DNA of 64,000 nt. It comes from Paraspadella gotoi. Its lineage: Eukaryota; Animalia; Chaetognatha. This document shows, piece by piece, positions 31,501 through 54,800 of this stretch. Numbering within the stretch: the first letter of the stretch is position 1; every line of letters begins with the position of its first letter. The translations under genes were made by a program, and so were the position numbers. The stretch is from the NCBI GenBank assembly GCA_051294375.1, contig CM119263.1, positions 12,067,130 through 12,131,129 on the forward strand, given 5' to 3'. The notes beneath the pieces are model-generated. The model ran no database searches, had not been told where the DNA came from, and was given only the letters and a program-made list of their open reading frames with translations.

Positions 31501-34500
31501 TAATTAATAAATAATTAATAATTAATTCAAGTTATTTAGTAATTAATTTATTCAAGGTAATTATTTGTGTGAAGAAGGCTTGAATACCAAAGCCGAAACA
31601 TGTCTGTTTAATAAAAACAAATTCGTTGAAAACTAATAAAAACTTTGTTTTTCTCTAAAGGTAATTATTTAATTAATTAGCCAATTAATTTATTAATTTG
31701 AAATTATTAATATGGCTCTATACCCTAGTAATTAATTTTTAATATTATTTATAGATAGGAAAAGCCAAAAAAATTTTTAGAATTTTTAAATTTTTAAAAC
31801 CAGATTCAGATAGCTCATAAAAAGTTGTCTACACAAGTATAATTCTTTTTTAAATATTTTTATAATAAGTGTGTCAAAAAATAAGAAAAACCGTAAAAAT
31901 AATCAACATCATCATCTTTCAATAATTTTATCCAGTTTTTTTCATATTTTCACTTAAAAAACATAAGACTTTTTAAAAGCTGTATTATGTTTCTTGTTTA
32001 ACTTTTTATGCTCTATCAGAATCCATCAAAAAATTTTAAGATTTCCTAACAAAAAATTATTTGCTCTATATAGTAATATAATATTTTTAATTAGGCTAGT
32101 TCCCTCAGAAGAAAGCATTTTTGACAAAAAAATATTTGAATATCATAATCTATGGTCATGATAGATTATTTAACGTTGTATACATTAGCATTTAAATTTC
32201 ATCGGCAATGGCTACTTAAAGAAACGTATTAGATAGCTGAATTTCAAAGGGATAATGAAAAATGAAACAAAGTTAATTGAAAGTTAAAATGATTAGTCCA
32301 AGCCCCATTAAAATCGCTGATGAAGGTTCGAAAATAAGAACTGAAACATGTTCGAAATATTATTTTATCCTTAGAAATGGCAATTCAAACACAACGAAAG
32401 AAAGGAAATACCAAGGCTGGGCAGACTAATTTTTATGTTACAGCTTTCATAATTATATAACTCTCTTTACTTTTTTAAGGGCTTCCGAAAATATTAATAT
32501 TGATAATATTTGAGTGGGTAGAGGATTAAGCAAGAAATAAAGTTTTTTGAAATCATTTAAGTGAAAAGTTCAAAATAGAAAATGCAAAAATTAGTTTAAT
32601 AAATTTAATGTTAAATTTTTCTATAAACTGTAAAAGCATGTAACAACAAATGATCGTAGGCAGATCCGATATTATTTCTTCAAACTTCTTAAATAACAAG
32701 TTATTCCTACTCAATCTATCTCCATTTTAAGATGAAAATAGCTTCGTCTACTGTACTATATACCATTATTCATTACAGCTTGATTTACCAGCATAATAAA
32801 AACGCCAAATACTGCATCCTTAAAAGCAAATGAAAATATATAAAACAAATGGGAGCTGAGACATTCCAAAGAGAAGAGAAATAACGTACTTAAAGTAATA
32901 TCTTAATAATCAATTTTGAAAAAAATAACCATGGGCAATCTTGCCGATTTATTAATGAATCAAAAAATTGTTATTATGGTTGTACCGACCATCGAGTATC
33001 GACAATAGTTAATTTTATATCATATGTAACAAATCTATGAGAAATAATAATCCTTGAGGTTAAAAAAATTTAATACTTATAGTTAGTCCTCATAGTTGAC
33101 CACTGTCCTTTCTCAAATCTGTGTTGGAAACTTGCCTATTCCCTCTCTCTCTCTCTCTCTCAATCTTTTCTTCATGCACACAATTTTGTTCAAATTCACA
33201 AACTCTTTTTAACGCTGATGAAGGCTTGTAACTGAGCCGAAACATATCCGTTATTAATAAAAATAAATCGTTGTTGAAAACTAATTTCAAACTCTTCTAA
33301 TCATTACACAATGAAACGAAAGGATTACACCACAATACTTTTTAACATAATTTTTAAGTGGGAAATTAAAAATCGGTATTTTAAATATAGTTTGTTACGA
33401 ATTAACAAACTCAATATTTTGACGAATACCAAATTCTCTACTTTTCCCGATGCTCTTTAGTTCTTTCTTTGCTGACTCGAAGATTTTAATGGAACAGCAT
33501 TAAACTAATCCATTATTGTATTAATTATTGTGTTAAAATATTTTTTTGCAAAAATGTTCCGAAATGAGTAATTCGCTAATTAATATTATTATATCGCTAT
33601 ATAATGTCAAAAATTTTTTTGGATATGTTAAGTTTTTTTAATTTATTCTGATAGAGCTTAAAAAGTTAAGCAAAAAATATAATTACAACTTTTTAAAATT
33701 TTAATGTTTTATTATTAAAAATTAGTAAAAACTGTTAAAATCATTGGATGATGATGATGATGATGATTTTTTAAGGTTTTTTTTATTTTAACCCACTTAT
33801 CATCAAAATATTGAAAAAAGAATTATACTTTGTGTAGATAACTTTTCATAAGCTATTTGAATCTGCTTTTAAAAATAAAAAATTCAAAAAAAAATTTTGA
33901 CATTTCTTATCTATAAATAAATATTAAAAAATTAATTACTAATTGCTTCTTGCCATTTTATAAAATTTTGCTCCATTGAAAGTTTTCTCAGAAATGTTTG
34001 AAGTTTCATTTGGAAAGGTTCCCAAATCAAACTTCTGACCCACCCCATTGACGAAGCTTGGCTCTATCGAAGAAGCCTTTTTTCAAAGCAATTACTAGCG
34101 ACATCTTTTGTTTAAACTTAGTACGGATTCCGAGGCAGTGCATGGCGGATTCAACGATTTAAACTTCGTTTTGACTTTTGTCAACTTCGTTAATCTTTCA
34201 CTGCGTTTTTTTATCTCGTTCTGGCTCTGCAGCTATTGGACTATGGTTATCATCGATCAAACATTTGGTTATCATCGCATCAATGAATGATTATCAACAA
34301 TTAATGAATGACTATCATCATATCAGTAAATGACTATCATCGCGTCAATGAATGATTATCATCACATCCATAAATACTAAGCAACGCATCAATTAATAAT
34401 AATGAATAACTTTCATCGCAGTGAGGCAGTTTAAATGAGTGCCTATTTTCTTTGTTTCAATTTGATTCAAATATTTTTTGTTTGAATTTCCAATTCATTA

Positions 34501-37500
34501 TGATTTACTGCAATATGCAAATTAGATTATATTACTTTTCCATTGATTTTTCTTGATAGTAACGTCTGGCGAGATCACTATTCTTAAGATTTTTTGTACA
34601 ATATTGGCCCATTTTAGAGTAATGATTTTTTAAACTTTGTTCGGATTTATGTTTTTTTACACCACTAAGTCGATTTAAAAAACCGCGCTCACAAGCAAAT
34701 GGTATTTGATAATTTTTGATAGAAGGACTCTATAATTCACTTCTCTGGTCTGTCGGTCCGCCCCCTCAATCTTGTCGGGCATTATCTTATATCATGTCAG
34801 AACATCGAATTATGAAAAATTATGCAAAAAAAAACGAGTGTCTGTCCGTCCGTCCTGTCCCACCTTAGCAAAAAAACACCAATTACTTGTGATTGGAATG
34901 GATAGATTGGAATGAAATTTTGTGTATGGGTAGGAAGTGTGTGATTGAGCTGGATATGATGTTTCGATGGAATCGTCCAAGTGGAAATGCATTTAAATGG
35001 AAAAAACAAAAAAATTATATTTCACTATTTGAACATCAATTATCATGAGTGGATGGGGAGGATTGGCTTGAAATTTTGTTATTTGGGTAGAAAAGTGTGT
35101 GATTAGAACTGGAAATCAAGTTTTGATGGAATCGTTTGAGTGGAAATGATTTAAATAGAAAACAAGAAATCTGTTTCACTAATCGATTATGCAATCTTTT
35201 TCGTTTAAATATAATGCAATGTATTAATATAATAAAATAATTAATCAGTTAATTAATCAATTAGTCAATAATTAATCAATAATTAATTAATCAGTCAATT
35301 TAATCAAAACAAACATTTCAGATCNNNNNNNNNNNNNNNNNNNNNNNNNATAAGTAAATGCCCGACAAGATTGAGGGGGCGGACCGACAGACCGAGAAAG
35401 TGAATTATAGAGTCTTTATAAAAAATTATCAAATACCATTTTGCTTGTGAGGCGGTTTTTAATCGACTTAGTGGTGTAAAAAAAACATAAATCCGAACAA
35501 AAGTTTAAAAAATCATTACTCTAAAATGGCCAATATTGTACAAAAAATCTTAAGAATAGTGATCTCGCCAGACGTTACTATCAAAGAAAATCAATGGAAA
35601 AGTAATATAATCTAATTTGCATATTGCAGTAAATCATAATGAATTGGAAATTCAAACAAAAAATATTTGAATCAATATGAAACAAAGAAAATAGGCACTC
35701 ATTTAAACTGCCTCACTGCGATGAAAGTTATTCATTATTATTAATTGATGCGTTGCTTAGTATTTATGGATGTGATGATAATCATTCATTGACGCGATGA
35801 TAGTCATTTACTGATATGATGATAGTCATTCATTAATTGTTGATAATCATTCATTGATGCGATGATAACCAAATGTTTGATGCGATGATAACCATAGTCC
35901 AATAGCTGCAGAGCCAGAACGAGATAAAAAAACGCAGTGAAAGATTAACGAAGTTGACAAAAGTCAAAACGAAGTTTAAATCGTTGAATCCGCCATGCAC
36001 TGCCTCGGAATCCGTACTAAGTTTAAACAAAAGATGTCGCTAGTAATTGCTTTGAAAAAAGGCCTTCTTCGATAGAGCCAAGCTTCGTCAATGGGGTGGG
36101 TCAGAAGTTTGATTTGGGAACCTTTCAAATGAAACTTCAAACATTTCTGAGAAAACTTTCAATGGAGCAAAATTTTCATAAAATGGCAAGAAGCATTAGT
36201 AATTAATTTTTTAATATTTATTTATAGATAAGAAATGTCAAAATTTTTTTTTGAATTTTTTATTTTTAAAAGCAGATTCAAATAGCTTATGAAAAGTTAT
36301 CTACACAAAGTATAATTCTTTTTTCAATATTTTGATGATAAGTGGGTTAAAATTAAAAAAAACCTTAAAAAATCATCATCATCATCATCATCCAATGATT
36401 TTAACAGTTTTTACTAATTTTTAATAATAAAACATTAAAATTTTAAAAAGTTGTAATTATATTTTTTGCTTAACTTTTTAAGCTCTATCAGAATAAATTA
36501 AAAAAACTTAACATATCCAAAAAAATTTTTGACATTATATAGCGATATAATAATATTAATTAGCGAATTACTCATGGTTCGGAACATTTTTGCAAAAAAA
36601 TATTTTAACACAATATTAATACCAATAATGGATTAGTTTAATGCTGTTCCCATTAAAATTCTTCGAGTCAGCAAAGAAAGAACTAAAGAGCATCGGGAAA
36701 AGTAGAGAATTTGGTATTCGTCAAAATATTGAGTTTGTTAATTCGTAACAAACTATATTTAAAATACCGATTTTTAATTTCCCACTTAAAAATTATGTTA
36801 AAAAGTATTGTGGTGTAATCCTTTCGTTTCATTGTGTAATGATTAGAAGAGTTTGAAATTAGTTTTCAACAACGATTTATTTTTATTAATAACGGATATG
36901 TTTCGGCTCAGTTACAAGCCTTCATCAGCGTTAAAAAGAGTTTGTGAATTTGAAACAAAATTGTGTGCATGAAGAAAAGATTGAGAGAGAGAGAGAGAGA
37001 GGGAATAGGCAAAGTTTCCAACACAGATTTGAGAAAGGACAGTGGTCAACTATGAGGACTAACTATAAGTATTAAATTTTTTTTAACCTCAAGGATTATT
37101 AATTTCTCATAAGATTTGTTACATATGATATAAAATTAACTATTGTCGATACTCGATGGTCGGTACAACCATAATAACAATTTTTGATTCATTAATAAAT
37201 CGGCAAGATTGCCCATGGTTATTTTTTTCAAATTGATTATTAAGATATTACTTTACAGGTACGTTATTTCTCTTCTCTTTGGAATGTCTCAGCTCCCATT
37301 TGTTTATATATTTTCATTTGCTTTTAAGGATGCAGTATTTGGCGTTTTTATTATGCTGGTAAATCAAGCTGTAATGAATAATGGTATATAGTACAGTAGA
37401 CGAAGCTATTTTCATCTTAAAATGGAGATAGATTGAGTAGGAATAACTTGTTATTTAAGAAGTTTGAAGAAATAATATCGGATCTGCCTACGATCATTTG

Positions 37501-39786
37501 TTGTTACATGCTTTTACAGTTTATAGAAAAATTTAACATTAAATTTATTAAACTAATTTTTGCATTTTCTATTTTGAACTTTTCACTTAAATGATTTCAA
37601 AAAACTTTATTTCTTGCTTAATCCTCTACCCACTCAAAATATTATCAATATTAATATTTTCGGAAGCCCTTAAAAAAGTAAAGAGAGTTATATAATTATG
37701 AAAGCTGTAACATAAAAATTAGTCTGCCCAGCCTTGGTATTTCCTTTCTTTCGTTGTGTTTGAATTGCCATTTCTAAGGATAAAATAATATTTCGAACAT
37801 GTTTCAGTTCTTATTTTCGAACCTTCATCAGCGATTTTAATGGGGCTTGGACTAATCATTTTAACTTTCAATTAACTTTGTTTCATTTTTCATTATCCCT
37901 TTGAAATTCAGCTATCTAATACGTTTCTTTAAGTAGCCATTGCCGATGAAATTTAAATGCTAATGTATACAACGTTAAAATAATCTATCATGACCATAGA
38001 TTATGATATTCAAATATTTTTTTGTCAAAAATGCTTTCTTCTGAGGGAACTAGCCTAATTAAAAATATTATATTACTATATAGAGCAAATAATTTTTGTT
38101 AGGAAATCTTAAAATTTTTTGATGGATTCTGATAGAGCATAAAAAGTTAAACAAGAAACATAATTACAGCTTTTAAAAAGTCCTATGTTTTTTAAGTGAA
38201 AATATGAAAAAAACTGATAAAATTATTGAAAGATGATGATGTTGATTATTTTTTACGGTTTTTCTTATTTTTGACACACTTATTATAAAAATATTTAAAA
38301 AAGAATTATACTTTGTGTAGACAACTTTTTATGAGCTATCTGAATCTGGTTTTAAAATTTAAAAATTCTAAAAAATTTTTTTGGCTTTTCCTATCTATAA
38401 ATAAATATTAAAAAATTAATTACTAGGGTATAGAGCCATATTAAATAATTTTTTTGTCCATTGAAATTATTCTTAAAAATGTTGAAATATTCGTTTGAGC
38501 ATGTACTCACTTTAAATTTTTGACTCACCCCATTGAGTTGGGCTACCCCTACTTTAAGGCGGGAAAAGTAGTTTTCTTTGATAGGAAAACGTTTAAAAAA
38601 TGTCTTGAATCAAAGAAACGAAAAGAAATGAATTGAATAAAAAAAATGAAATGAACTTAATTGAATGAAATTAATTAAAAAGTAAACAATTATCTCGCCC
38701 AAGACGGACCTAAGCCCGTCCGGTGAGATAAAAAGTGGCTACTTTTTTTCGCCACAGTGTAGTGATCATATCATTTTCCTTTCTTAACTCCAGCTCATCA
38801 ATATATTGGGAATGTTTGTGCCTCCTATGATCATGATTCTTATTAATTTGATAACAGAAAATAAAGATTTTTTAGATGGTGTTGGACAATTTTTTGAATT
38901 GCTTCTTTCTCCTTATGCTCTTTCAATTGCGTTTAGTAATTTAAATGAAGTAAGTATATTAGGCAATTAAAAATTTATTTTATTTAAATTACCTTTTTAA
39001 TTTTTATTGGTTACAGCAGTTCCAACTCATTATTAAACAAGTTTGAACAAACAACGTCGGATCTGCCAACATTAGTTACGCTCATCAGCTAATGAAATGA
39101 TAACTCATTGTAAATATTAAAAATTTTTAGTCGAATCTGCTTATCAGCAGATGCCGACTCTATAATCCACTTTGTCGGTCCATCATTCGCCCCCCAAAAA
39201 ATATTGTCGGTAATATTGTCACTTATATCATCTCAGGACATCAAATTATGATAAATTAAGCAAAAAAACGATATTCGTCCTACCTCAGTGTGGTTGTCTG
39301 TCCGTACTCGTGGTTGGATGGATGGATTGAGATGAAATTTTGTATGTCGGTAGAAAAGTGTATGATAGAGTTTCGATGGAATCGGGCGAGTGGAAATGAG
39401 TTTAACATAATGAAAATAAGTCAAGTTATAATCCTTTAAAATGAAAGATATTATAAGTAAATAATATTAAAACAAGTTTGAGCAAACAATGTAGGATCTG
39501 CCTACGATAATTAAGTGGTAATAAGCTAACTTATCCAAAAAAGTTGAATCCTTCCCTCTTTCCATACATTTATTTGTTTGTCCATCCATCTGTAACTTTA
39601 ACCTATCATTACACTTGAGTAAATTGATGGATTGATCTGAAATTTTGTGTGTGGCCAGAAAAGAGGTGGATTGAGCTTAATCTTAAGTTTGGACAAAACC
39701 ATTCTGGTAGAAATTAATTTAAATTAAAAAAATATAAAATAATTTTAACTATTTATTTTTTCATTTTAAAAAGTAAAAATATATAA

Positions 39787-39819
<33 letters not shown>

Positions 39820-42800
39820 GTATAAACATAATAACAACAATGACTCTTTCTTTTTCTTACTCAATATCCCTCTTTATTTTTCTATCTTTCTCTCTCTCAA
39901 TCTATTTCTCATTTTCCTTTTTGATCTCTCATTTTTAACTTACCTTTTTTCAAGCTCCTTACTTTTTATACTTTTACCATTCCAATTCATCTCCTCTATC
40001 TTTAAACATTCGTGTGAGCTTTGTTTTATTCATAAAAGTATAAATATTAATTTAAATTTCAAAAAATTAAGTATTTTTTTAAAATTTCCAAAAAAATGAA
40101 CTGACCTATGCTCATTGAGAATTTTATTTCTACTCTAAAATAAAAGATATCAAAAAAAGAAAAAAATCAGATTGTAGCAAAATCAAATAGCTAAAAGCTG
40201 ATTTTTTTGAAAATTCAAAATTCGTTCTCTATTTCCAGATCTAAAATTCTCAATGCTCAAAATCTTTTTTAAGAAATAAAAATGTTTATGGTACAGAAGT
40301 ACAGTAGTCCGAACTGTTTTAAAATATACATAATATTACATATATTATTGCAATAACATGACTTAACTCAAAATGACTTCCTTATTCTTTGACTCAACAC
40401 AGGAGGAATACAGTAAAAAAAGAAAGTCAAATCTTGAAAAAGTGGAGAAAAAAATTCGTCATTTTAGTTTTCAAATTGATTGATCTAAAACTTTTATTTT
40501 CTAAATTCAAAAGTATGAAATAATGAATCAGAGAGTAAGATCTTTTTTTCAGCTATCATTTGGTGTATAATTATAATCATTTTTAATATTTTTTATCCAT
40601 ATAGTTTAACTGACATATCAAGGAGTACAAAATTTTGTCATAGATTTTCGCTACCACGAGTCTGCTTCTTACTGCCTTTTTACTAATTTTTCGTTTTTTG
40701 TAAATAAGTAAACGTTGAAGAGACAGTAATTATTGATAAGTGTTAATGACAAAACCGTTCAATATAAGCAGTCCCTGAGCTTCGGATCAGGCTATAACAC
40801 CATGTTACAGGCGGGTTAAGCGCCCCGTCCCTCTTAACTGCCAGACGACCACCGGGCTAGAACCCCGGACCTTTGGGTTGGGAGGCGAATGACTTGCCTC
40901 TGGCACCAATGGCCGCTGATGAACGCTTGGTGGATTTTAGTCCACCATACATCCCCCCTCCCGTAGGAAGAAGTCTGTTGCGTCTCTTCAGTGAATTGTT
41001 GTTGGTGGAAAGTTCGTCACCAAGTTGAGGCATGTCGCCTGATGTGTTCTGGGCAGAAAGTGCATTGCCAGGTTGAGGCATGTCGCCTGAAAGTGTTGTT
41101 GTTGCTGTTGTGTTAGGAAGTCGGGCTCACCAATGAAGAGACAGTAATTATTGATAAGTGTTAATGACAGAACCGTTCAATATAAGCAGTCCCTGAGCTT
41201 CAGATCAGGCTGTAAAACCATTTTACACGCGGGTTAAGCGCCCCGTCCCTCTTAACTGCCAGACGACCACCGGGTTAGAACCCTGGGAGGCGAATGACTA
41301 GCCTCCGGCACCAATGGCCGCTGATGAACGGTTGGTGGATTTTAGTCCACCATAACGTTATGGTAAAAGTAAAGGAAGTTTGGTAGAACCAAGCGCATGC
41401 AGTATTATTAATGTAAAGCTTTAAGTTTGGCTCACAGATTAAGAAATATGAAAAAAATTTGCCTGTCGAAAGTCAGGGGCAAGATAGCTTATTTTTTAAA
41501 TGAATGGATAATTTTTATATTGGTTGTACCAATTTCATGAAATAGTTTAAATGGTTAAATATTAGAGTGATGTGAAAATAATAAAATTATATAAAATTAA
41601 AATTTAGTATATAAAATATGGAAATAAAAACTAATATAAATTTATTTTTAAATTTTATACTTTAGTGGGTACCAGTGAGCTATATTTATATATAGTATTA
41701 AGTATATAATATTAATAGACTATAATTTCAAAAAAATGTAAATTTTTAAATTCTTTTATTAAGTTAGTAAAAAATATAAAAAACTATATTCAGGATACCG
41801 ATTTTCAATTTCCAGATTAAAAATATAGTTTTTTTTTAATGTTAACCTAATTAATGATATAATTTTTAAAAAAGATTTATATTTTCTTAAATCAACTTTT
41901 TGTAAGGAAACTGAATCTGTTCTCAGAATTTAAAAAAAAACATTTTAAAATTTTGACATTTTATAAGGGTAGCACTATATACAAAATAAGCTAACTGGGC
42001 TACTATATTAGTAAAAAAAAATTAATGTCAGATTAGTATTCACTAATATGATAGTTTTCAAGATATAATTTTTTTTTCTGAAAAAAAAACAGCAAACAAA
42101 TAATTGCGAGAATGGTTGCAAAAATATCTTATGTCAACAATAAACGTGAACAAAAAAGGAAAATAAAAAAGAAAAAGAGATCGGGAGACAAAGTCAAGCA
42201 ACTCCGTCCACATGAGACGGCAACTCAATCACGGGACTTCGGGAAGCGAGCAGGTCCCCGTTGTCGATATAAATGCTAAATTTTGATTTCAAACATTCAC
42301 TTCACCCTATTAAACATGTATTTTGCTTTTTCCATTTAAACTTATTTCCACTTATTTCCATCAAATCTTGATTTCCAACCCAATCACACACTTTTTAATT
42401 AACGTTCAAATCTGAGATGATATAAGTGTCTCACCGACAAGATAATGGGGGTGACCGAGAGACGGACAAACTTAACTAATGAGCCAGAATCTTCTTATTA
42501 GCAGATCCGGTTAAAAAACCTCTTCTTTCTTTCTTTCCTTACCCCCACAATGTGTCTCTTTCTGTCTTTTTTGATCAATCCATCAATCAATCAATAAATG
42601 GATTACCGCTGGCTAATATAATGGTTACTATCTAGGAAAAAGTATATCACATAATTTAGTTATTCAATAAAAAGTATACAAAACATGGATAAAAGATTCT
42701 TAATATTTGGTATGCCCTTTCTCGGCATTGACTACTATCTATATTCATCTGGGCATGCTCTTATACAGCAAATTGAGGTATGACCGTGAAATGTGTTTCC

Positions 42801-45800
42801 ATATCTTTAACGCAATTTTTTTCAGCCCCAATTTTAATGTTGAGCGTCTTTCCCTTTTTTATGAGAGCTATAATAGCATTTTTTTAAACCAAAAAAAGGT
42901 GCAAGACCTTTAGCATTGCCAAATTTAAAAAAAATTAAACTCTTTGAAATAAAAATAAATAATTAAATACTAAAAATAGTAGAAAATTAAACAAATTTTT
43001 TCACCATTTTTCATTAAAAGTAACCTGCCTGTAACTTCTAAACGATTTGACCTACAAAAAAATGGAAGGAAGCTTCTGAAAAAAAAATCAATATAAATTT
43101 GGAAATATTCTGATTTTTTTAAATCAAAAAAGTTTTCTAGTATATATCCTTTAATAAAAATGTGATATACTTTTTTTCTAGATAGTAGATTTAACCGTTA
43201 GGGTTAGACAGGCCCGCGGGCGATGGAGATGTCGTGGCACGTGAACTGAGAAAACTGAGGGAAAACTTAGGGATGTGGAAGACGATGCCGCGAGTAGTTC
43301 ACCGTGTTGGACATAAACTCTCGTTGTAATCCGTCGATTTTATTTACCTTTTGTAAAAGTGTTTGAAAACATAAACAATCGATATTTATTTGTTGCCCAC
43401 AAGTTCCCGAACTTCGGATCGAGCTGTAGTCCGTCACTACAGGTTGGATAGACGCCCCGGCGCGCTTTAATGTGTGAATCAGCAGGGCGCGAACCCGGTT
43501 GGGAGGAGCTCGTGCTAGCTCCGGCGCCATAGGTGCTTCTGATTCTCGGACGAGTAACTGGGTATGAAATACTACCGCTACAGGGATAGGGTTTGGATCG
43601 GGGCCTGGTTTAGAATTAGAGTTGAGTTGAATTTCCAGCTGGCGATGGAATGGAGTAGGTTTAGGGTTAAGGACGCGAAGCCGAGTCGCCGAAAATTCCA
43701 ATGGACTTGCAAAACAGACCGGGATAAAAACAAAATTAAAAATATAAATGAAAGAAAGAAAAATAGGAATCTAAATCTAATAATACCACTCCTATAGTTC
43801 GATAGAGACTTGATTTTCTCTTAATATTGTAATTATAGAACGGAGCCAAGAAGCGATCATGTGCGTTTCAAGTTATAAAAGCAAAGGATGTTTCTGCTTC
43901 TATTTTAAAAAACCCAGTGCATATCGGGTAAGAATAAAAATTAAAGTTATTAATGTTTCAGTTGAAAAAGTACCCACTGACGGAGGTATAAATGGGAACA
44001 TCATTAAACAAATTTGCCAATTATTTCAAAAGTCTTGCCAAGCAAAGTCTTTCATGCCCTCATTCACTCATTCACAAGGTATCAGCCAAAGGTTGAACTG
44101 ACTTCAAGCATATATGTAATAAAAGTAATATATATGAAAATCAATATTATTGAAATAATTCAGCGTATTATATTATTATCATTTTAAATTTTTTTATTAT
44201 TTTTTATAAGTATACCTAATTTTATTAGTATAATTATTTTTTGATAATTTGCAAAATTACATATTTCACTATTTTCTATTTTTATATTTTTTAAAGGCTT
44301 TACTATTTAATCTAAATTATTTAATTACATATAAATTGCATTTAAAAAAATTAATATAATTGAAAAAATTAAATAGGTCATAATATTATTACTTTTAAAA
44401 GATTGTATGAAATTTAAATATTTATAATCCTTAAAAGCTTAATTTAAAATCTAATCTAGTTTTAAAAAAATTTAATTTATTATTTATAAAGAAAATTATT
44501 TAAAAATAAATAAATTATTTATGTTTAATGAAAATTTGCAAATTATTATTATTATATGTACAGAAAGGAAATTGATTTTTATAATAAAAATAAACTTATT
44601 TTTTGGGTGTATTTCTATTTAATATAATATTTAATATTTTTTTCTTTCGGTCTTTTAAAATTTATGAAAGATTTTAGTGACCGAGAGGAAATAGCGTCGC
44701 CATGCCTCTCTGTCTCTGCCCCTCAGTCCAGACTTAGTGAGCTCAGTGGGTCTGTGAGATTTTACCGTCAATTGCCTTGCTTTCCGGAACTTCGGACCCG
44801 GCGATAGGCTACTACAATATCATAAAAGAAAAATATAAGAAAAGAAAAAAAAATAGCAAAATAAAAAAGAAAAGTTAATTACAAAATTAAGGTTATATTT
44901 AAAAAAAAATGAAAATAATCAATGACGGTGATAGCCGCGCAGAAGTCTTGATCAATACTATGGGAACTAAGAACAGGATGTAGTCGGGCATTGCCTAGGT
45001 TCACCCCGCCTATAAGTAGCGGTAGCCGACCAAATTCAAATTTTATTTTTTAATGGGAACAGTATTAAACGAATCCATTATTGGTATTAGTTATTGTGTT
45101 AAAATATTTTTTTTGAAAAAATGTTCCGAACCATTCGCTAATTAAAATTATTATTTTGCTATATAATGTAATTTTTTTTTTTATATTTTAAGTTTTTTTT
45201 AATTGATTCTGATAGAGCTGAAAAAGTTGAGCAAAAAATTACTGAAAATTAGCAAAATCTATTAAAATTGTCGGATGAGGATGAGTTTTTCCTAATTTTG
45301 ACCCACTTATCAAAATATTGAAAGAATAATTATACTTTGTGTAGACAACTTTTATAAGCTATATGAATCTGCTTTTAAAAATACAAAATAAAAAAAAAAT
45401 TTGACATTTCCTATTTATAAATAAATATTAAAAAATTAGCCATTTTAAAAAATTTTGGTCCATTGTCAATGGACCAAAATTGAAAGTTTTCTCAGAAATG
45501 TATGAATTTTCATTTGGGAAGGTTCCCAAATCAAACTTCTGACCCACCCCATTGACAAAGATTGGCTCTACTATAAGCATGACACTTTCAGTTGTGACCC
45601 TGTGGCTCATTGAGTAAAGCCATCAGTTCATGACCACTAGGTACCGGGTTCAATCCCAACCCAGTACCTACCCTGTGGGAAGCGTGAGGACAGCCGTAAG
45701 CTGCCTTGGGGGCATGACAATCCCTCAAGCATGGTTCCAAGCCCAGGGATCCGTTCCATGGCTGCTAGAGAGGGTTATAGAAGTTACGGACAGTCATCTT

Positions 45801-48800
45801 TAGCCCACGTAACGCCTTATCCACAAGGCTAAGTGTATTTATAGCTTAGAAGAGGATCGACACGGGTAGATTTTCCATCGAGCTTGCAGTGTTGCAATCG
45901 CATTAGTCGATTCCATCCTTGAGTCATTCGCCCGATCCTCTGATCCGTTTTCAATTCTCGAAGGGTTAAAGGTCTTTTGATGATGACTAAGGTCATCTTA
46001 ATGACTGTGGTCAATTAGAGTTAATAGGAGTCACCCGAGAAGGAAGGTGGCCTGTGGTAAGTCGCCTCTTAAGTTTAATAATCCGCTGTTATTGTTTTTC
46101 AGTGAATTTTTTTATGACTCTATATTTTGGGGAGGAACAACTTTTTCGATAGATCAAGCGATTAATTACTATGGCAATACTAAAGCGTTTTATTTTGCTG
46201 ATCGGCTCACTATTCAGGATGTTGCCGATGAAGAAAGCGGCTATGATGCCGTTTGCAAGGTAGATTTAAAACAAATTAAATAAAAAAAAAAGTTTGAGCA
46301 AACAATGTCAGGAACCCTCATGATACTCCTAATATTACTATTTTGCTTTAAGAGGAAGGTTTGTTCACCGTAACCATGCGTGAACTTAAATGTGATACAG
46401 CTCTGACATCAAGAAAGACATCGTAGCTACGAGTTAATGAAATTCGTTGTTCAAAAGAAAAACAAACTATTCTCCTTTAATGATAATTCTTATAAAATAT
46501 TTATAATTCTTTTGTCATTTTAATAGAATTATAAGTTTTGAATCAAAACCCTGTAGGAAAAGTCGCTTTTAAAGCAAAATTTATTTGTAATTTACAAAGT
46601 AATTACATTTTAAACATAGGGAAAAGTTTTTAGATGGTTTTGCTCTTTTTAAGGAAAAGTCGATTTACAGTTAAATTCTCTTATGGTGGACTAAAATTCA
46701 CCAAAGTTCATTAGCGGCCGTTGGTGTACGAGGCAAGTCATTTGCTTCCCAACCCAAAGGTCAAGGGTTTTATCCCGTATAGAGGGACGCGCCGCTTAAC
46801 TCGCCTGTAATACGGTGGGCCTTGTTTGCCCAGAACGCCCTATTTTATCTTAAAATCGGAATTAACTTAATTTATTTTGGCTAAAGATTAGGTTAGAAGT
46901 TAAGATTAGGGATTGTTTTATAAGTTTAAAAATTTATTTAAATTAAATATTATAGTTAAAATTTAATTCTGGGAAAAACAAACGGAAAGGGGCACTCTCT
47001 CCAAATGAATAGTTTTGGGTAATTACTTGTTTAGAAGCGCTTTCAATGTTTACTTAATTCGGGTAAAATACTATAACTTTGTTCTTAACTGAAAAAAATC
47101 AATTAAGGTTTATAAATCAGTGGGAAAAAAATCCTTTCTCGGTTACCCTATTGTGAGACATTGCTGCAAAATTGAAATGGTAGACTATTACGCCTGGAAG
47201 CCCCCCGGAATCGGACGTCAACTCTTCTTTTTCTTCATCCAGGTAAATTTGATTCAAAAAAAATTTACATACTTTTTACTTACTTTTTACACAATTTTTA
47301 ATAAAAGGAAAAATACTGTAAAAGTAGTATTATATCTTTAATTTTTAGCCAACCAAATTCAAAATTTAATGGGAACAGCAATAAACAAATAGGTTATCAA
47401 TACTCCTGATAGTGTTAAAATATTTTTTTGAAAAAATGATCCAAATCAATACTAATTCCCTCTTCAAAATTATTATAATCTGGTGTGCCCATCGAGTTAA
47501 AGCTTTCCTTAACATTGCCCAAGAGGGTCATTAGATTCATGGATTATCTCAATGTTCGAGCCCTTAGTTTGTCATTTAGAAAGTGAAATGGGCCAAGTAA
47601 TCCGCCGGTAGTCTGGATTCTGGACGCCATGACTACTCTGTCTCAACATGAGGTAACACACAGTTAAAGCTTTGAGATTGCCTTGTAGAAAGTGAGATGG
47701 ACTGGGTAACCCGCCAGTAGGCAAGGGCCTGCCTCCAGATCCAAAACTCTTGACTCCATAAACACATATACTGTGTATAATGTAAATTGTATATGTATAT
47801 ATAAATTAGGTCACGTGATCAGAATTTTAATGCGGCATAGTTCGTGTAATGCTTGCTTATTTTTGTTGATTTTTAGTTGCGCCGCAAGTCCTCGCGCAGC
47901 AACTCTATAACCCACTTTTCAGTCGGTATGTCTGTCTGTCGATCTGTCCCACTTACGTTAAAAATGCTCATAACTCGCCTGTTCATTTGTTAAGTGACTG
48001 CTAGCGCCGCCATCAGGAAATCCTAAAACAGAATAAAAGACAAAATTCCGATGCAGTGCGTGTCATAAATACATTGCAGCCATATCATGTCGTGTTATGT
48101 AAATAAATAAATAAATAATAAAAAATAAAATAAAATAATAAAATAATAAATAGATACACATGAAAATAAAGTCACTGTGGCGCAACACATTGGATGAACC
48201 GATCTTGTTAAAAGATAAGTGATAAACCATAAGATTATTTTTGGGCATGTATTTTATATTTGTTTTGCCAAATAACCACCAAAGAATGCTTTCTCGATAG
48301 AAAGTCAGTGTAGCGCAACACCTTGAACTTCGGTTTTTTAAAAAAATTGGCCCTACACTTATTAGGATGCCAGGTCCATTAGAATCAAAAATTTACAGTG
48401 AGTACATGCTCGAACGAAAATTTAGACATTTTTAAGTTTACTTTCAATGGACAAAAAAAATCTCTTATGGCTCTATACCCTAGTAATTAATTTTTTAATA
48501 TATATTTATAGATAGGAAATGCCTAAAATTTTTGTGAAAAATTTTAAATTTTAAGACCAGATTCAAATAGCTCGTAAAAAGTTGTTTACACAAAGTATAA
48601 ATCTTTTTTAAATATTTTTATGATAAGTAGGTCAAAAATAAGAAAAACCGTAAACAGTTGTCATCATCATCTTTCGATGATTTAATTGGTTTTTTTAGAT
48701 TTTTATTCAGAAAACGTAAGAATTTTTAAAAGCTGTAGTTATATTTCTTTTTTTAACTTTTTTTGCTCAATCAGAATTAGGGACCAACTCCAGAGATAAT

Positions 48801-51800
48801 ATAAAATTTTGACTATTAGTAAAGTATTTTTAGTTATCTTGACTAAATATTTAAGATTTCTTTTTCAAAAAAAAATTTACATTATATGTCTTGATTAATA
48901 CATTAAATATTACTTGTCTTTTTTTATATTATAAATTTTTTTTTTTAAATCTTAAAATTTTTTGATAGACTCTGATAGAGCATAAAAAGGTAAACAAGAA
49001 ATATAATTACAGCTTTTAAAAATTCTTATCATCTTTCGATGATAAAATAATCGAAAGATGATGATGATGAAGATTTTTACAGTTTTTTATTTTTGACTCA
49101 CTTATAATGAAAATATTGAAAAAAGATTTATACTTTGTGTTGACAACTTTTTATGAGCTATCTGAATCTTGTCTTAAAAATTAAAAATTATCAAAAAATT
49201 TTTGCCTTTCCTATTTATTAATTAATATTAAAAAAATAATTATTTGGGTATAGAGCCAGATAAGAAATGTTTTGTCCATTGAAAGTATACTTCAAAATGT
49301 ATAAATTTTCGTTTGAGCATGTAATCATTCTAAATTTTTGACTCACCTCATTGAGTGGGGCTACCCCTATCAGAATCTATCAAACAATTTTAGGATTTCA
49401 AAAAAATTTTTCTTATAATTAGGCTCGTACCATCAGAAAAAAGCATTTTTAAAAAAAAATATTTTAATACTATAATCTATGCTCATGATGGATTATTTTC
49501 ACGCTGTATACATTAGCATTTAAATTTCATCGGCTATGGCTACCATTAGTAATTAAGTAATCTTTTCAGAAGTAAACAGATTCCTCAATTTTTTTATTTC
49601 GAAATCGAAAACGAAAGTTTTGAATAGAACGACTTTTAATAACAATAGTTATCGAAAAAAGAGAAAAATACACAATTTCTAAATCATATTAAGCAAAATA
49701 TTTTATCAGGAACAAAAGTATATTTAAACTACACCAGATATTATTTATATGATTTTTCTGTAAACTTGAAGTTGCTGATTACCATGGCTTGTCTTCTCAT
49801 TCCTTAGATGATGATTTACACTAACATTCTTCTCATTATCGAGTGGTCGATGTTATGTTGCAATCGAGGAAGAACCCGTGTCAAAAAAATAATTATCAGC
49901 GATGAGGACGACGACGACGTGACGGCGGAAAATTTGCTCGTCAACAAATATATCACGGATCAACGCCTCCTTGAAGGCGGAGCGACAGATCCTCATTTGG
50001 GGATGACGCTTCTCCGGGAAGGCCGACCCGCTCTCGTTATTTCCCATGATGACCTTATTGTTCACAACCTGGGCAAGTCGTTTGGGAACTTTAAAGCTGT
50101 CGACGGAATTTCTTTCGTTGTTCCCAAGGTTTTTAGAAGGGTCTTTGTACAATGTACAGTTTAGCGCTGTAAAATTTTTTAAAATCAAATAAAAAACTTC
50201 GAATAGTGGATCATGAAAAGTAGGTGGCCTGTTCAGTGTCCCCACCAGTGTGGATAGATAGCACTCTTCAGCTTACTAAGCACTTCATACTGGGCTGAAA
50301 ACCACCCTTAAGCCTTGTTCCAAACCAAGGACCCATTCCATGGCTGCCAGAGGGGGTGAAAAACGTTATGAAGAGCATTCTTCAGCCCACTTAGCGCCTT
50401 ATACACACTGGGCTAAACTTCTTTTTCTACCACTATTTTTAACCCCCTCTAGCAGACATGGAACGGGTCCTGGGCTTGGAACCAGGCTTAAGAGTTTTCC
50501 TCACCAACGAGGCAGTTTACGGTCGTTGTCACGCTTCCCGCAGAATAGGTACTACTGGGAATTGATCCATATACCTCATGGTCATGAGTTGATGGTATTA
50601 TTCAATTAGCCACTGGGTCACGACTGAATGAATCATGCTCATAGACGGGGTGAACTTATGCAATGCCCGACGATAAAACTTGTTATAAAACAATTATTGC
50701 GTAAACCTGCTATTGTCAGGGTCAACTTTTTGGTCTTCTTGGATTAAACGGAGCCGGGAAATCTACAACCTTCAAGATGTTAAGTGGAGAAATAGGAATC
50801 ACTCACGGTTTGTATTGATTATTAACCGCAATATACTTAGATTTGCGAATACTTATGAAAGAGCTATTATACGTATGCAAAAACAAGTTGCTGCGCGAAT
50901 AAATGTAAATCGCTTTCAAGGGTTTAAACTGAACCATTATTGCGGTACAAATTGAAGAGACAGTAATTATTATTATGTGTTAGTGATAAATTAATTTATT
51001 AATTAAATTATATTATTTTAGTTTATATAGTTTGTATTAATTATAATACCGCTAATGATCTGTGGGCAGATCCAACATGTTTTGCTCAAACTTAGTTCAG
51101 ATTACGTATCACTGATCTTACTATACCGCCCACTTCCGGCCAATTTTGTTATTGAAACCACATTCATAAATGCATTATCCTCGATAAAATCACACCTTTC
51201 TTCATTTAAAGATGAGACGAGAATGAAGGAAAGAAAGGAGAGGTAATTAAAAGAAGAAAGAAAACTAAAATATAAAAAAAATACGAGAAACCGAGACAAC
51301 ATCAAAAAGCAAATATAAAATTTTAGCAGAATTTTTTTAGGATGTTCTCGCTATATATCTGATATAATTAGGTAAATTTTACATACATCTTATGATTTTT
51401 TCAGGCCATAAAATACTACTAATTCTAATATAACCTTACAAAATTGAGTTGAAAATTCGCGTTATTGCAGTTTTTAGAATAGGTTTAAAAAATAGGTGTT
51501 TTTTGACCATTTTTAGGGCTTTTTGAGGTCCTGTATTTCTTTCATGGGTTATCACAAATTTAAAAAATTTATATTAGTATCAGTAATTATATTCACCAAT
51601 AAGATTTTGCATAAATTTTTTTTAAAAAAATATTATTTATCAAAAAATCATATTTTGTTAGTTAATATATTAAAAATCACTATTTAGTTTAGTATAAAAA
51701 ATTATAATTTGATTACGAAGGATAAGAATTGCCTATCATCAACTAATATTTTCTATAATAAAAAGTTAACTAATAAATAAAAAAATAAATAATAGCTAAT

Positions 51801-54800
51801 TATTATAATATAGCAACTATGCATAAATATTAAAAAAAAATTTTTTATCAGTCTAACACTTTTCCATAGGACCAAGTAATGTTAAGTTAATTTTTAATTG
51901 AGAAAAAAATATATCGTTGAGTATTTTTGAGCAACAGTATGCAAATTAAATTTTTGTTTAAAAATGATGCTTCAAAAACAAAACTTCAAATTTTTTTTTT
52001 GAAATATAGAATGGGAATAGACCATACGAGTTTCCATCCACACATGCATATCAAGTCATTTCCATTCATTATTATTAGAAGATATAGCTTCTGGACTTAA
52101 TGATAAGGAAAAGCCAAGACCGAGTACTGGTAAATGCGGTAGAAAGTGTATGATAGAGGTTTCATTGGAATCGCGGCGACTCTAGTGGAAATGAGTTTAA
52201 CCTAATGAAAATTAAAGTCAATTTATAATCCTTTTAAAATGAAAGATTATTATAAGGCAATAATATTAAAACAGTTGAAATCAAACAATGTAGGATCTGC
52301 CTACGATAATTAAGTCAGGTAAAAGCTAACTTATCCACAAAATTGAATCTTCCCTCTTTCCATTACATTTATTTGTTTGTCCATCCATCTGAACTTTAAC
52401 CTATCATATACACTTGAGTAAAATTGATGATGATCTGAAATTTTGTTGTGTTGGCCCAGAAAAGAGGTGATTAGCTTAATCTTAGTTTGGACAAAACCAT
52501 TCTGTAGAAAAGAAATTAATTTAAAATTAAAAAAATATTAAAATAATTTTTAACTATTTATTGGTTTTCAAATTTTAAAGACAGTAAATTAATTATAGAT
52601 GATATATAGATAAACTTCAATAATAATAATATATAAGGGTAATATAAGTATAAACATAATAACAACAATGACTCTTGTTTTCTTACTCAATATCCCCTCT
52701 TTATTTTTCATCTTTCTCTCTCTCAATTATTTTCCCTCATTTTCCTTTTTGATCTCTCATTTTTCACACTTACCTTTTTTCAAAGCTCTTTACTTCTCTA
52801 TAGTCATCCATTCTCTACCATTCAATAACCATCTTCGTACTGTGATCATCTGACTTTCTTTTCATAGAGTTAAATATTAATTTAATATTTAAAAAATTAA
52901 GTTTATTTTTTAAAATTTTCCAAAAAAATGAACTTTTTGACCTATGCTATTGGAAATTTTTATTTCTACTCTAAACATAAAAGATATCAAAAAAAGAAAA
53001 AAATCAGATTGTTAGCAAATCAAATAGCTAAAAGCTGATTTTTTTTGAAATTCAAAATTCTTCTCTATTTCCAGATCTAAATTCTCCATGCTCAAAATCT
53101 TTTTAAGAAATAAAAATGTTTATGGTACAAGAAGTACAGTAGTCCCACTGTTTTAAATATACTATATTACATTATTATTGCAATTAAACTGTACTTAACT
53201 CAAATGATTCCTTATTCTTTTTGACTCAACACAGGAGGAATCAGTAAAAAGAAAGTCAATCTTGAAAAAGTGGAGAAAAAAATTCGTCATTTTTAGTTTC
53301 AAATTGATTGATCTAAAACTTTATATTTTCTAAAATTCAAAAATATAAAATAATGAATCAGAGAAGTAAGATCTTTTTTCAGCTATCATTTGGTGGTATT
53401 GATTACAATAAGGTCATTTTTACTATTTTTGGTTCATATAGTTTAAATCTGACATATCAAGGAGTACAAAATTTATCGTCAAGTTTTCCTACCACGAGTC
53501 TGCTTCTTACTGCCTTTTTAACTAATTTCCGTTTTTTGTAAATAATAAACGTTTGAGAGACAGTAATATTAATTAAGTTGTTAAATGATAGAACTCAATA
53601 TAAGCAGTCCCTGAGCTTCGGATCAGGCTGTAACACCATGTTACAGGCGGGTTAAGCGCCCCGTCCCTCTTAACTGCCAGACGACCACGGGCTAGAACCC
53701 CGGACCTTTGGGTTGGGAGGCGAATGACTTGCCTGGCACCAATGGCCGCTGATGAACGGTTGGTGGATTTTAGTCCCCATACATCCCCCCCTCCCGTAGG
53801 GAGAAGTCTGTTGCGTCTCTTCAGTGAATTTGTTGTTGGTGAAAGTTCGTCACCAAGTTGAGGCATGTCGCCTGATGTGTTGTGGGCGAAAGTGCATTCG
53901 CCAGGTTGAGGCATGTCGCCTGAAAGTGTTGTTGTTTTGCTGTTGTGTTGGAAGTCGGGCTCACCAATGAAGAGACAGGAATTATTATTATGTGTTAATG
54001 ACAGAACCATTCAATATAAGCAGTCCCTGAGCTTCGGATCAGGCTGTAACACCATTGTTACAGGCGGGTTAAGCGCCCCGTCCCTCTTAACTGCCAGACG
54101 ACCACCGGGTAGAACCCCTGGGAGGCGAATGACTGCCTCCGGCACCAATGGCCGCTGATGAACGGTTGGTGGATTTTAGTCCACCATAACGTTATAGGTA
54201 AAAGTAAAGGAAGTTTGGTAAGAACCAAGCGCATGCAGTATTATTAATGTAAAGCATTTAAGTTTGCTCACAGAATTAAGAAAATATTAGGAAAAAATTT
54301 GACTGAATCGAAAGTTCCCAGGGGAAGATAGACTATATTTTTTAACATGAATGGATAATTTTATATTGGTAGTACCAAATTTCAATGAAATAGTTAAATG
54401 TTATAAATATTAGAGTGATGTTTGAAATAATTAAATTATATAAAATTATAATTATGTATAATAAATATGGAAATAAAAACTAATATTTAATTATTTTTAA
54501 ATTTTATTACTTTAGTGGCGTAACCATGTGAGCTATATTTTATATATGTATTAAGTATATTAAAGTAGAAATACTACTATTGAAATTAAATTCAAAGGGG
54601 CGGGTTCAAAACTTATCTTGAAAGTCTACTTTTAAGAGTAAAAAAGAATTTTTAAAAAAGTTCGATTTTAATGCTTTTATTGTTGCTTTAAAATTACAAT
54701 ATATAACATATAATGTAAAAAATTTTTAATCAATCTTAACTTTTTTCTTTGAATGAATTCTAGTAGAGCATAAAAAGTTAAATAAAAATTTAACTATAAC

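Follow-up and report, generated by a model that had tools for sequence, protein, structure and literature searches.

The window analysed here is the whole 64,000-nt (64-kb) stretch of Paraspadella gotoi contig CM119263.1 (assembly GCA_051294375.1, positions 12,067,130 to 12,131,129 of the forward strand); it has a GC content of 30.4%, and all coordinates below are positions within it. It contains five distinct pieces (B1 to B5), and one duplicate of B1, of a repeat which we term family B. This family has the ends of a long terminal repeat (LTR), 4-bp target duplications, tRNA-like boxes and a twister ribozyme motif with its conserved residues, and the pairs of that motif are kept between family B and a second repeat of the window, family A. 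The main copy, B1, is a solo LTR of about 290 nt spanning 44979-45825 on the plus strand, with TG...CA ends and an interruption of 554 bp. Its parts are as follows (X1 is one of four public sequencing runs described below).

44979 to 45016, plus strand: 5' head of the B1 LTR, beginning with TG; 4-bp target site at 44975-44978
45017 to 45570, no strand assigned: nested 554-bp repeat within B1, likely a non-autonomous DNA transposon and not family B; 7-bp duplication at 45010-45016 and 45571-45577
45596 to 45667, plus strand: tRNA-like segment, not a tRNA gene; A-box-like sequence at 45603-45614, CAT loop at 45626-45632, B box at 45647-45657
45675 to 45754, plus strand: type-P5 twister motif; P5 at 45675-79/45750-54, P2 at 45682, 84, 85/45700-02, general-base G at 45686, pseudoknot T1 at 45688-90/45736-38, pseudoknot T2 at 45703-04/45741-42, P3 at 45705-12/45722-29, P4 at 45730-34/45743-47
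45691 to 45696, plus strand: 6-nt linker in the position of P1; perfectly palindromic in B2 and across 99% of X1 depth
45697 to 45698, plus strand: cleavage predicted here, at U^A within UAA, on the basis of the twister consensus
45755 to 45825, plus strand: 3' part of the B1 LTR, terminating in CCACA; target copy at 45826-45829, matching at three of four positions

The remaining pieces of family B are:

20978 to 21267, minus strand: B2, an unbroken solo LTR of 290 nt with TG...TA ends and a 4/4 target duplication; twister decayed, palindrome intact
50420 to 50672, minus strand: B3, an LTR clipped at both ends, without a target duplication; P4, P5 and loop L4 intact, T1 broken
50215 to 50408, plus strand: B4, a 3' fragment joined tail-to-tail to B3
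31314 to 31410, plus strand: B5, a 5' fragment
58394 to 59228, plus strand: duplicate of B1 inside a 6.8-kb segmental duplication, 96.7% identical

The original prediction had proposed a family of three copies with the order LTR start, A and B boxes and twister and with a 4-bp target duplication. The parts are present in family B in that order, and the copy at 20978-21267 is whole; that at 44979-45825 is real but split by the insert, and the third (50410-50670) resolves into the clipped LTR at 50420-50672 fused to the fragment at 50215-50408. A duplication of 4/4 flanks B2 and one of 3/4 flanks B1, but there is none at 50420-50672. Fragments B4 and B5, the insert nested in B1, the non-independence of the B1 duplicate, the palindrome replacing P1, a P2 that is one pair short and a third family (C) had not formed part of that prediction. 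The sequence at 58394-59228 represents the same locus as B1 within a segmental duplication and was thus not treated as an independent copy. Identity among B1, B2 and B3 is 74-79% over about 200 nt and, as had been foreseen, individual copies are partly decayed, the alterations lying in P4 and P5 of B1, in the twister of B2 and in T1 of B3. The 554-bp insert at 45017-45570 has TAG...CTA termini, and its relatives are found at 33484-34066, at 36073-36658 and elsewhere.

Contigs of four public runs (X1, X5, X6 and X9, out of nine on record) were aligned to 45560-45860 at 80% likeness. In X1 the summed contig depth, which indicates abundance and not copy number, reaches 5.9e5 over family B against about 50 in its flanks; family B is very abundant. 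In all four runs the loose contig ends before 45571 carry the LTR head, joined straight to the body downstream, and the insert at 45017-45570 is therefore foreign to the family. Beyond 45825 the loose ends disagree (agreement 0.44 in X1 and 0.54 in X9) and depth drops to flank level, which indicates a sharp 3' end with no common tail. Four of the 11 places at which B1 differs from the majority letter (45663, 45676, 45692 and 45702) show CpG-type decay, a hint of host methylation. B1 itself, an interrupted and slightly decayed solo LTR, is a dead end.

A complete element was available for comparison in family A:

40716 to 41354, minus strand: full family A element; LTRs at 41134-41354 and 40716-40949, primer site at 41120-41132, purine tract adjoining 40950, 4/4 target duplication, twister sites 418 nt apart

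Its LTR boundary is fixed by the loose ends that accumulate behind 40949 and 41354-41355, and it has two LTRs around a short non-coding internal region, the layout by which Helenus elements are defined (under about 1.3 kb). Its primer site of 13 nt is of the tRNA-Trp type, and two elements of family A have ribozyme-to-ribozyme distances of 418 and 417 nt. Both LTRs of the listed element (40716-40949 and 41134-41354) start with TA, not TG, on the sense strand.

The evidence supports family B being of LTR type rather than a short interspersed nuclear element (SINE). Its ends and 4-bp target duplications (TG...CA with 3/4 in B1, TG...TA with 4/4 in B2) are as in the animal-type Helenus miniature terminal-repeat retrotransposons (TRIMs), and one contig in each of X5 and X6, two of the four runs, continues from the LTR end into an 18-nt stretch in which 16 positions agree with the tRNA-Trp primer site of Gypsy-32_NVi. 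At the B3/B4 junction (50215-50672), CTGG follows directly after the LTR end and has the same start as this primer site, a hint of a template switch. It could be argued instead that family B represents a SINE of tRNA origin whose body is a ribozyme, given that all five distinct copies in the window are unpaired and that the three primer-site matches found within the window all belong to family A and none to family B. However, of the SINE behaviour named in the original prediction as grounds for abandoning its claim, variable duplications and tails were not seen: both whole copies are flanked by a 4-bp target duplication, which in one of them contains a mismatch, and no common tail follows 45825. 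In addition, the tRNA-like part is preceded by about 55 nt of LTR sequence, a primer site exists in the public contigs and the layout matches that of the paired family A element. We regard a SINE origin as very improbable.

The assignment of the motif follows the twister domain order given in PMC8501958 (Table 1) and PMC5408937; these and the other papers cited by accession are drawn upon for those parts of them that were available. B1 reads P5, P2, GA, T1 (GGA), the 6-nt linker, UAA, P2, GC, an 8-bp P3, a 5-bp P4, the loop UUCCAAGC, P4 and P5. The conserved twister features (UAA, GA, GC and U...AAGC) are present at nine of nine positions in both B1 and B3 and decayed in B2, whilst in B1 the pseudoknots pair fully (T1 3/3, T2 2/2). 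The P2 combinations that had been predicted, GC or AC with GT, are as claimed. The T1 pairing GGA/TCC holds in two of the three distinct copies but is broken in 50420-50672; conversely, P4 as CCTGG/CCAGG and P5 as CGGG/CCCG are written out in 50420-50672 only and are decayed in the copy at 45598, where most contigs carry the pairing letter. The near-canonical loop is TTCCAAGC in two of three copies, and the same loop occurs in the published candidate Sma-1-119 (PMC8501958).

At four B1 pairs that are wobbles or mismatches the X1 majority supplies the Watson-Crick letter (45676, 76%; 45702, 95%; 45731, 99%; 45750, 99%), so that B1 appears decayed whilst the family retains the fold; with majority letters P2, P4 and both pseudoknots can pair, which was the outcome that the proposed fold required. 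The sole minor variant in P2 (45700, 8% of depth) converts a G-U to an A-U pair, and the 22 variable places listed at 5% include none of the 11 conserved nucleotides.

Could such a motif be a chance pattern in a GC-rich repeat? The descriptor, which permits linkers of 3-30 nt, and the fixed-geometry score were both written after the copies were known, and the fold energy is unremarkable (see below), both of which favour such a view. However, the descriptor finds eight matches in the window, comprising B1, its duplicate, five family A copies and one AT-rich chance match, and it matches only 5 of 20,000 shuffles of the 250-nt B1 body. On the fixed geometry, scored out of 27, B1 reaches 26, five A copies 26-27 and B3 23, whereas two shuffled windows yield no score above 22, and the same geometry recurs in family A, which is otherwise unrelated. 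The shuffles, the score gap and the pair test described next have already largely refuted a chance origin, which we consider scarcely credible.

An alignment made from sequence only, with four B and seven A rows (nine distinct), sets the twisters of the two families in register. Of the 162 cells over 18 pairs (P5 and inner P3 being omitted, since they have no one-to-one column alignment), 90.1% pair. Shuffling the columns gives 80.3+/-2.0%, and sliding the partners gives no more than 51.9%. In six pairs both members differ between A and B; T1 and the palindromic linker hold two of these each, P2 and P4 one each. Outside the twister the likeness of the two families is no better than that of shuffles (167/500 reach the score for the 5' part and 97/500 for the 3' part, against 8/500 for the twister), in agreement with the little primary-sequence likeness first noted; the remaining LTR has diverged past recognition, yet both families retain the catalytic G and A together with the L4 residues. 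The covariation that had been advanced as evidence of a selected fold is present in these six double changes, but since all of them stem from one split between two families it amounts to one comparison, and it lends support without constituting a phylogenetic covariation test.

In the tRNA-like segment upstream of the twister (45596-45667), TGGCTCA resembles an A box, 45647-45657 forms a good B box, and a GGTTC motif and a 7-nt loop with a central CAT are present. The anticodon-like CAT loop reported at the outset is thus present, but its stem forms two of five pairs by eye and ARAGORN calls no tRNA, and a functional tRNA-Met was rejected on both counts. The segment reads as a promoter remnant, as Kojima (PMC10886601) argues for the tRNA-like part of Helenus. 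Downstream of it no run of at least four T is found on the sense strand of B1, B2 or B3 (3/3), which fits read-through by RNA polymerase III (Pol III); this is weak evidence, given that the B1 antisense strand likewise has none and that, of two family A units, one contains a pair of such runs in sense orientation.

The 6-nt linker that replaces P1 reads CGGCCG in B2, as it does over 99% of X1 depth, and GGCGCT in six of seven A copies, the two central bases being swapped between the families. Both forms are self-complementary, with predicted homodimer energies of -10.7 kcal/mol (B2) and -8.3 kcal/mol (A), and self-complementary 6-mers make up about 5% of those in these LTRs (12/245 and 10/229). 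Adjacent bases cannot pair within one linker, so that full 6-bp pairing is possible only between two ribozyme copies. In a type-P5 twister the linker is the sole covalent tie of the two halves; two copies could thus swap halves around a shared 6-bp P1. A precedent exists in axolotl hammerheads with a helix of one base pair and a palindromic tetraloop, which cleave better as dimers and whose monomers are circularised by RtcB (PMC7229834).

Amongst described elements the closest likeness is to Helenus TRIMs (TRIMp3; Kojima, 2024, PMC10886601), which are likewise short non-coding LTR elements with A and B boxes in the LTR, a 4-bp duplication and a Gypsy-type tRNA primer, the tRNA-Trp primer being shared in particular with Helenus-2_SyJa and Helenus-2_SyUm. 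Family B fits the testable Helenus features, namely A and B boxes within the LTR, the ends and duplication, and the primer site, the likeness being one of features. It differs in having a twister behind the tRNA-like segment and in an A box without YGG. In the available main text of PMC10886601 the word "twister" occurs 0 times and no ribozyme is named in Helenus. However, in the supplement of that paper the LTRs of Helenus-2_SyJa and Helenus-2_SyUm, from Synergus gall wasps, show by eye a type III hammerhead directly after the tRNA-like segment, with CTGATGA and GAAA cores, helices of 7, 4 and 6 bp and a 12-nt complementarity between loop 1 and loop 2. The order of LTR start, tRNA-like segment, ribozyme motif, LTR end and tRNA-Trp primer site is therefore common to both, with a hammerhead, as judged by eye, in place of the twister.

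The plant LTR retrozymes (PMC4918200, PMC7761336), which have a ribozyme in each LTR, share with family B a non-coding nature, a ribozyme motif in the LTR, a 4-bp duplication, a primer site, probable mobilisation by Gypsy elements and many solo LTRs, and with family A also a purine tract. Theirs, in contrast, are type III hammerheads, with a tRNA-Met primer, larger LTRs of 300-400 bp, no tRNA-derived promoter reported in the parts available, and circles shown experimentally; a 2026 preprint (10.64898/2026.07.22.740005), in the parts available, still places LTR retrozymes mainly in plants. By the hammerhead definition family B is not an LTR retrozyme, but it likely works like one. With type-P5 twisters (PMC5408937, PMC6765202, PMC11662667) it shares the element order, UAA, GA, GC, the U-NNN-AAGC loop, both pseudoknots, P3, P4 and P5, and differs in the 6-nt palindrome as P1, a P2 of 3 bp and a bulge, a P4 of 5 bp and the lack of an Rfam score. 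Two Schistosoma systems each share one aspect: the twister T-variants at the 5' end of Perere-3 (PMC8501958) combine a weak-P1 twister with a retrotransposon, and the SINE-like hammerhead repeats (PMC6765202) place a ribozyme after a Pol III promoter. Both differ in being non-LTR, and the T-variants in being type P1 with a single cut at the 5' end. Amphibian retrozymes (PMC7229834) share a helix reduced to one pair and a palindromic loop; theirs are hammerheads in tandem non-LTR repeats whose dimer activity is demonstrated, whereas in family B a dimer is predicted. The titles and abstracts retrieved from the literature, with incomplete coverage of subscription journals, describe no twister in an LTR, no ribozyme in Helenus and no natural double twister. 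Pattern scans gave 0 matches in metagenome contigs and 0 in viral contigs, but these collections are mostly microbial and the result says little.

Taken with these comparisons, the layout leads us to a reading that we hold to be just probable: family B is a non-coding LTR repeat in which a tRNA-like segment is followed by a type-P5 twister, and it works as a retrozyme through a series of predicted RNA steps. The repeat is very probably a TRIM that a tRNA-Trp-primed Gypsy element mobilises. Pol III would, with good probability, initiate at the tRNA-like segment of the 5' LTR and read through, and the twisters would, only a little less surely, cleave at sites equivalent to 45697^45698. The palindromic linkers of two ribozyme copies might also form a shared 6-bp P1, a double twister which would boost cleavage, a step to which we give somewhat less than an even chance; on that view solo LTRs and the finished circle would be mostly quiet. 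Twisters in both LTRs would cut out a unit-length RNA (418 or 417 nt in family A), and the 5'-OH and cyclic-phosphate ends would be ligated by an RtcB-type activity into a circle. An RNA cut at both LTRs would lack the terminal redundancy needed in strand transfer; its ends would therefore have to be joined and reverse transcription would run round the circle, with the helper Gypsy reverse transcriptase, primed by tRNA-Trp, rebuilding two LTRs. Integration would yield the 4-bp duplication, and recombination would leave solo LTRs such as B1 and B2.

The same parts could serve a linear RNA. Here an active twister would cut mainly in the 3' LTR and replace a terminator, the 5' copy would often escape, and no circle would form; the tRNA-like segment and the 5' half of the ribozyme would then provide the terminal redundancy for ordinary LTR strand transfer. 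The B LTR copies have no T4 terminator, the weak P1 and a competing hairpin could render cleavage partial, and Helenus is taken to use the standard LTR mechanism (PMC10886601). However, the two LTR copies do not differ in sequence and no observation favours either, a palindromic P1 predicts symmetric cutting, and the same two-ribozyme layout gives circles in plant LTR retrozymes; this linear route seems to us unlikely.

The retrozyme reading should be considered with caution, as a number of results weigh against it. In both families P2 consists of 3 bp and a bulge, whereas the canonical helix has four pairs and an altered number might disrupt the active site (PMC5408937). There is no P1 stem closed by a loop, the 6-nt linker of a monomer giving one pair and a tetraloop. 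Rfam gives neither twister nor tRNA: the window has 0 matches at gathering thresholds and 12 weak unrelated ones at E<=10, and a search of 255 nt at E<=10 likewise gives no twister, the B body having two weak unrelated matches and the A LTR one; a hammerhead is likewise absent from the Rfam scans of family B. Predicted without pseudoknots, the structure of B1 does not exceed shuffles in stability (z -0.26) and favours a hairpin that buries the cleavage loop; only P3 forms, the probability of P2, P4 and P5 being near zero. By eye the majority letters still permit this competing hairpin, whereas one family A copy folds with P3, P4 and P5 (z -2.0). P1 is dispensable for twister activity (PMC5408937, PMC11662667), and so the dimer may not be needed. 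The A box has no usual GG (YGG is absent), and the number of doubly changed pairs is by itself not above the column shuffle (180/500). As to the full-length element looked for on the strength of the original prediction, the tRNA-Trp-type primer site was recovered in the X5 and X6 contigs, but their locus is a rearranged single one and so demonstrates the primer site and not a whole element; paired family B LTRs, an internal region and a purine tract were not seen in the window or the public contigs, and no helper element was found in the window.

Some of these points are softened by what is reported of other ribozymes. In the CHiTA study (PMC11662667), P1, P2 and P4 of type-P1 twisters tolerate bulges and deletions, whilst pseudoknots and catalytic residues are sensitive, and it is these sensitive parts that are intact in family B. 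RNAs of plant retrozymes are also predicted to keep the ribozyme in a blocked fold (plant LTR retrozyme literature, in the parts available), and the B1 hairpin is thus not fatal, yet it counts against easy cleavage by a monomer. Because the residues and pseudoknots are kept but a four-pair P2, a P1 stem and an Rfam match above threshold are not found, we term the motif a twister variant, predicted from its sequence to self-cleave.

The short P2, the missing P1 stem, the lack of an Rfam match and the competing hairpin would also suit a twister descendant that no longer cleaves, derived perhaps from a tRNA-headed SINE like the schistosome promoter-plus-ribozyme repeats. Fold and palindrome would then be a signal for dimerisation or packaging, or a passenger in successful master copies. 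Palindromic 6-mers act as dimer signals in retroelement RNAs, which speaks for this. Most published Helenus LTRs examined by eye, in the available parts of PMC10886601, show no obvious ribozyme. Set against such a relic is that A and B, despite LTR divergence, have retained residues important to twister chemistry (PMC11662667), namely the catalytic G and A and those of L4. The occupation of the same slot in Synergus Helenus LTRs by a different ribozyme class, as seen by eye, points to selection for cleavage. A non-cleaving relic, like the linear RNA, is in our view unlikely.

Beyond families A and B, a third repeat of similar build lies in the window:

43274 to 43582, minus strand: family C solo LTR; TG...CA ends, 4/4 target duplication, tRNA-like boxes and a decayed twister-like motif; duplicate near 57026

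In its motif P3, P4, T1 and a self-complementary linker are intact, T2 is changed on both sides (AC/GT), and GA and UAA are altered; the score of 21/27 lies within the null range, and the nhmmer E value is 0.0017. A possible decayed fourth family at 47550-47760, plus strand (D, with a duplicate near 61065), has a B-box-like motif followed by two tandem twister-like pieces. It was not counted, its score of 21/27 also being within the null range (9.5 per shuffled window). The surroundings are themselves repeated: about 9 kb at 39344-48493 recur at 52134-61871 with an offset of about 13.4 kb, 89-97% identity and many small indels, as a real or an assembly duplication, and 31701-34790 and 35350-38451 form a 3.1-kb inverted duplication that is 98% identical. 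Exon-like pieces on the plus strand (18444-18731, 26632-27015, 46005-46283, 49808-50164 and 50700-50790) may belong to an ABCA transporter, which they resemble by eye in their motifs, although database searches did not confirm this. If these exons are real, the LTR copies lie in the introns of that gene, with B1 on the sense strand.

A second family in which nearly all sequence has changed but the twister pairs are kept raises what could have been a one-off motif to an element class. A bolder proposal, which we put forward only tentatively and hold to be more doubtful than the retrozyme cycle itself, is that tRNA-Trp-primed Helenus TRIMs may be a hidden lineage of animal LTR retrozymes driven by Pol III, with an interchangeable ribozyme class (hammerhead in gall wasps, twister here). 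Its twister version would be a natural domain-swapped double ribozyme, the palindrome letting the two LTRs of one transcript activate each other while the solo LTRs, in their thousands, and the completed circle remain quiet. If the reading of the Synergus hammerheads holds, the slot behind the promoter accepts either class. Twister ribozymes have few assigned biological roles (PMC8501958), and the retrozyme cycle has so far been described with hammerheads in plants. As the geometry of a short P2 without P1 is missed by Rfam, more such ribozymes may hide in repeat libraries. The findings suggest that animals have LTR-type mobile elements with a circular RNA and a Pol III promoter of their own, that Helenus carries its ribozyme as an exchangeable module and that twisters are able to act in dimeric form.

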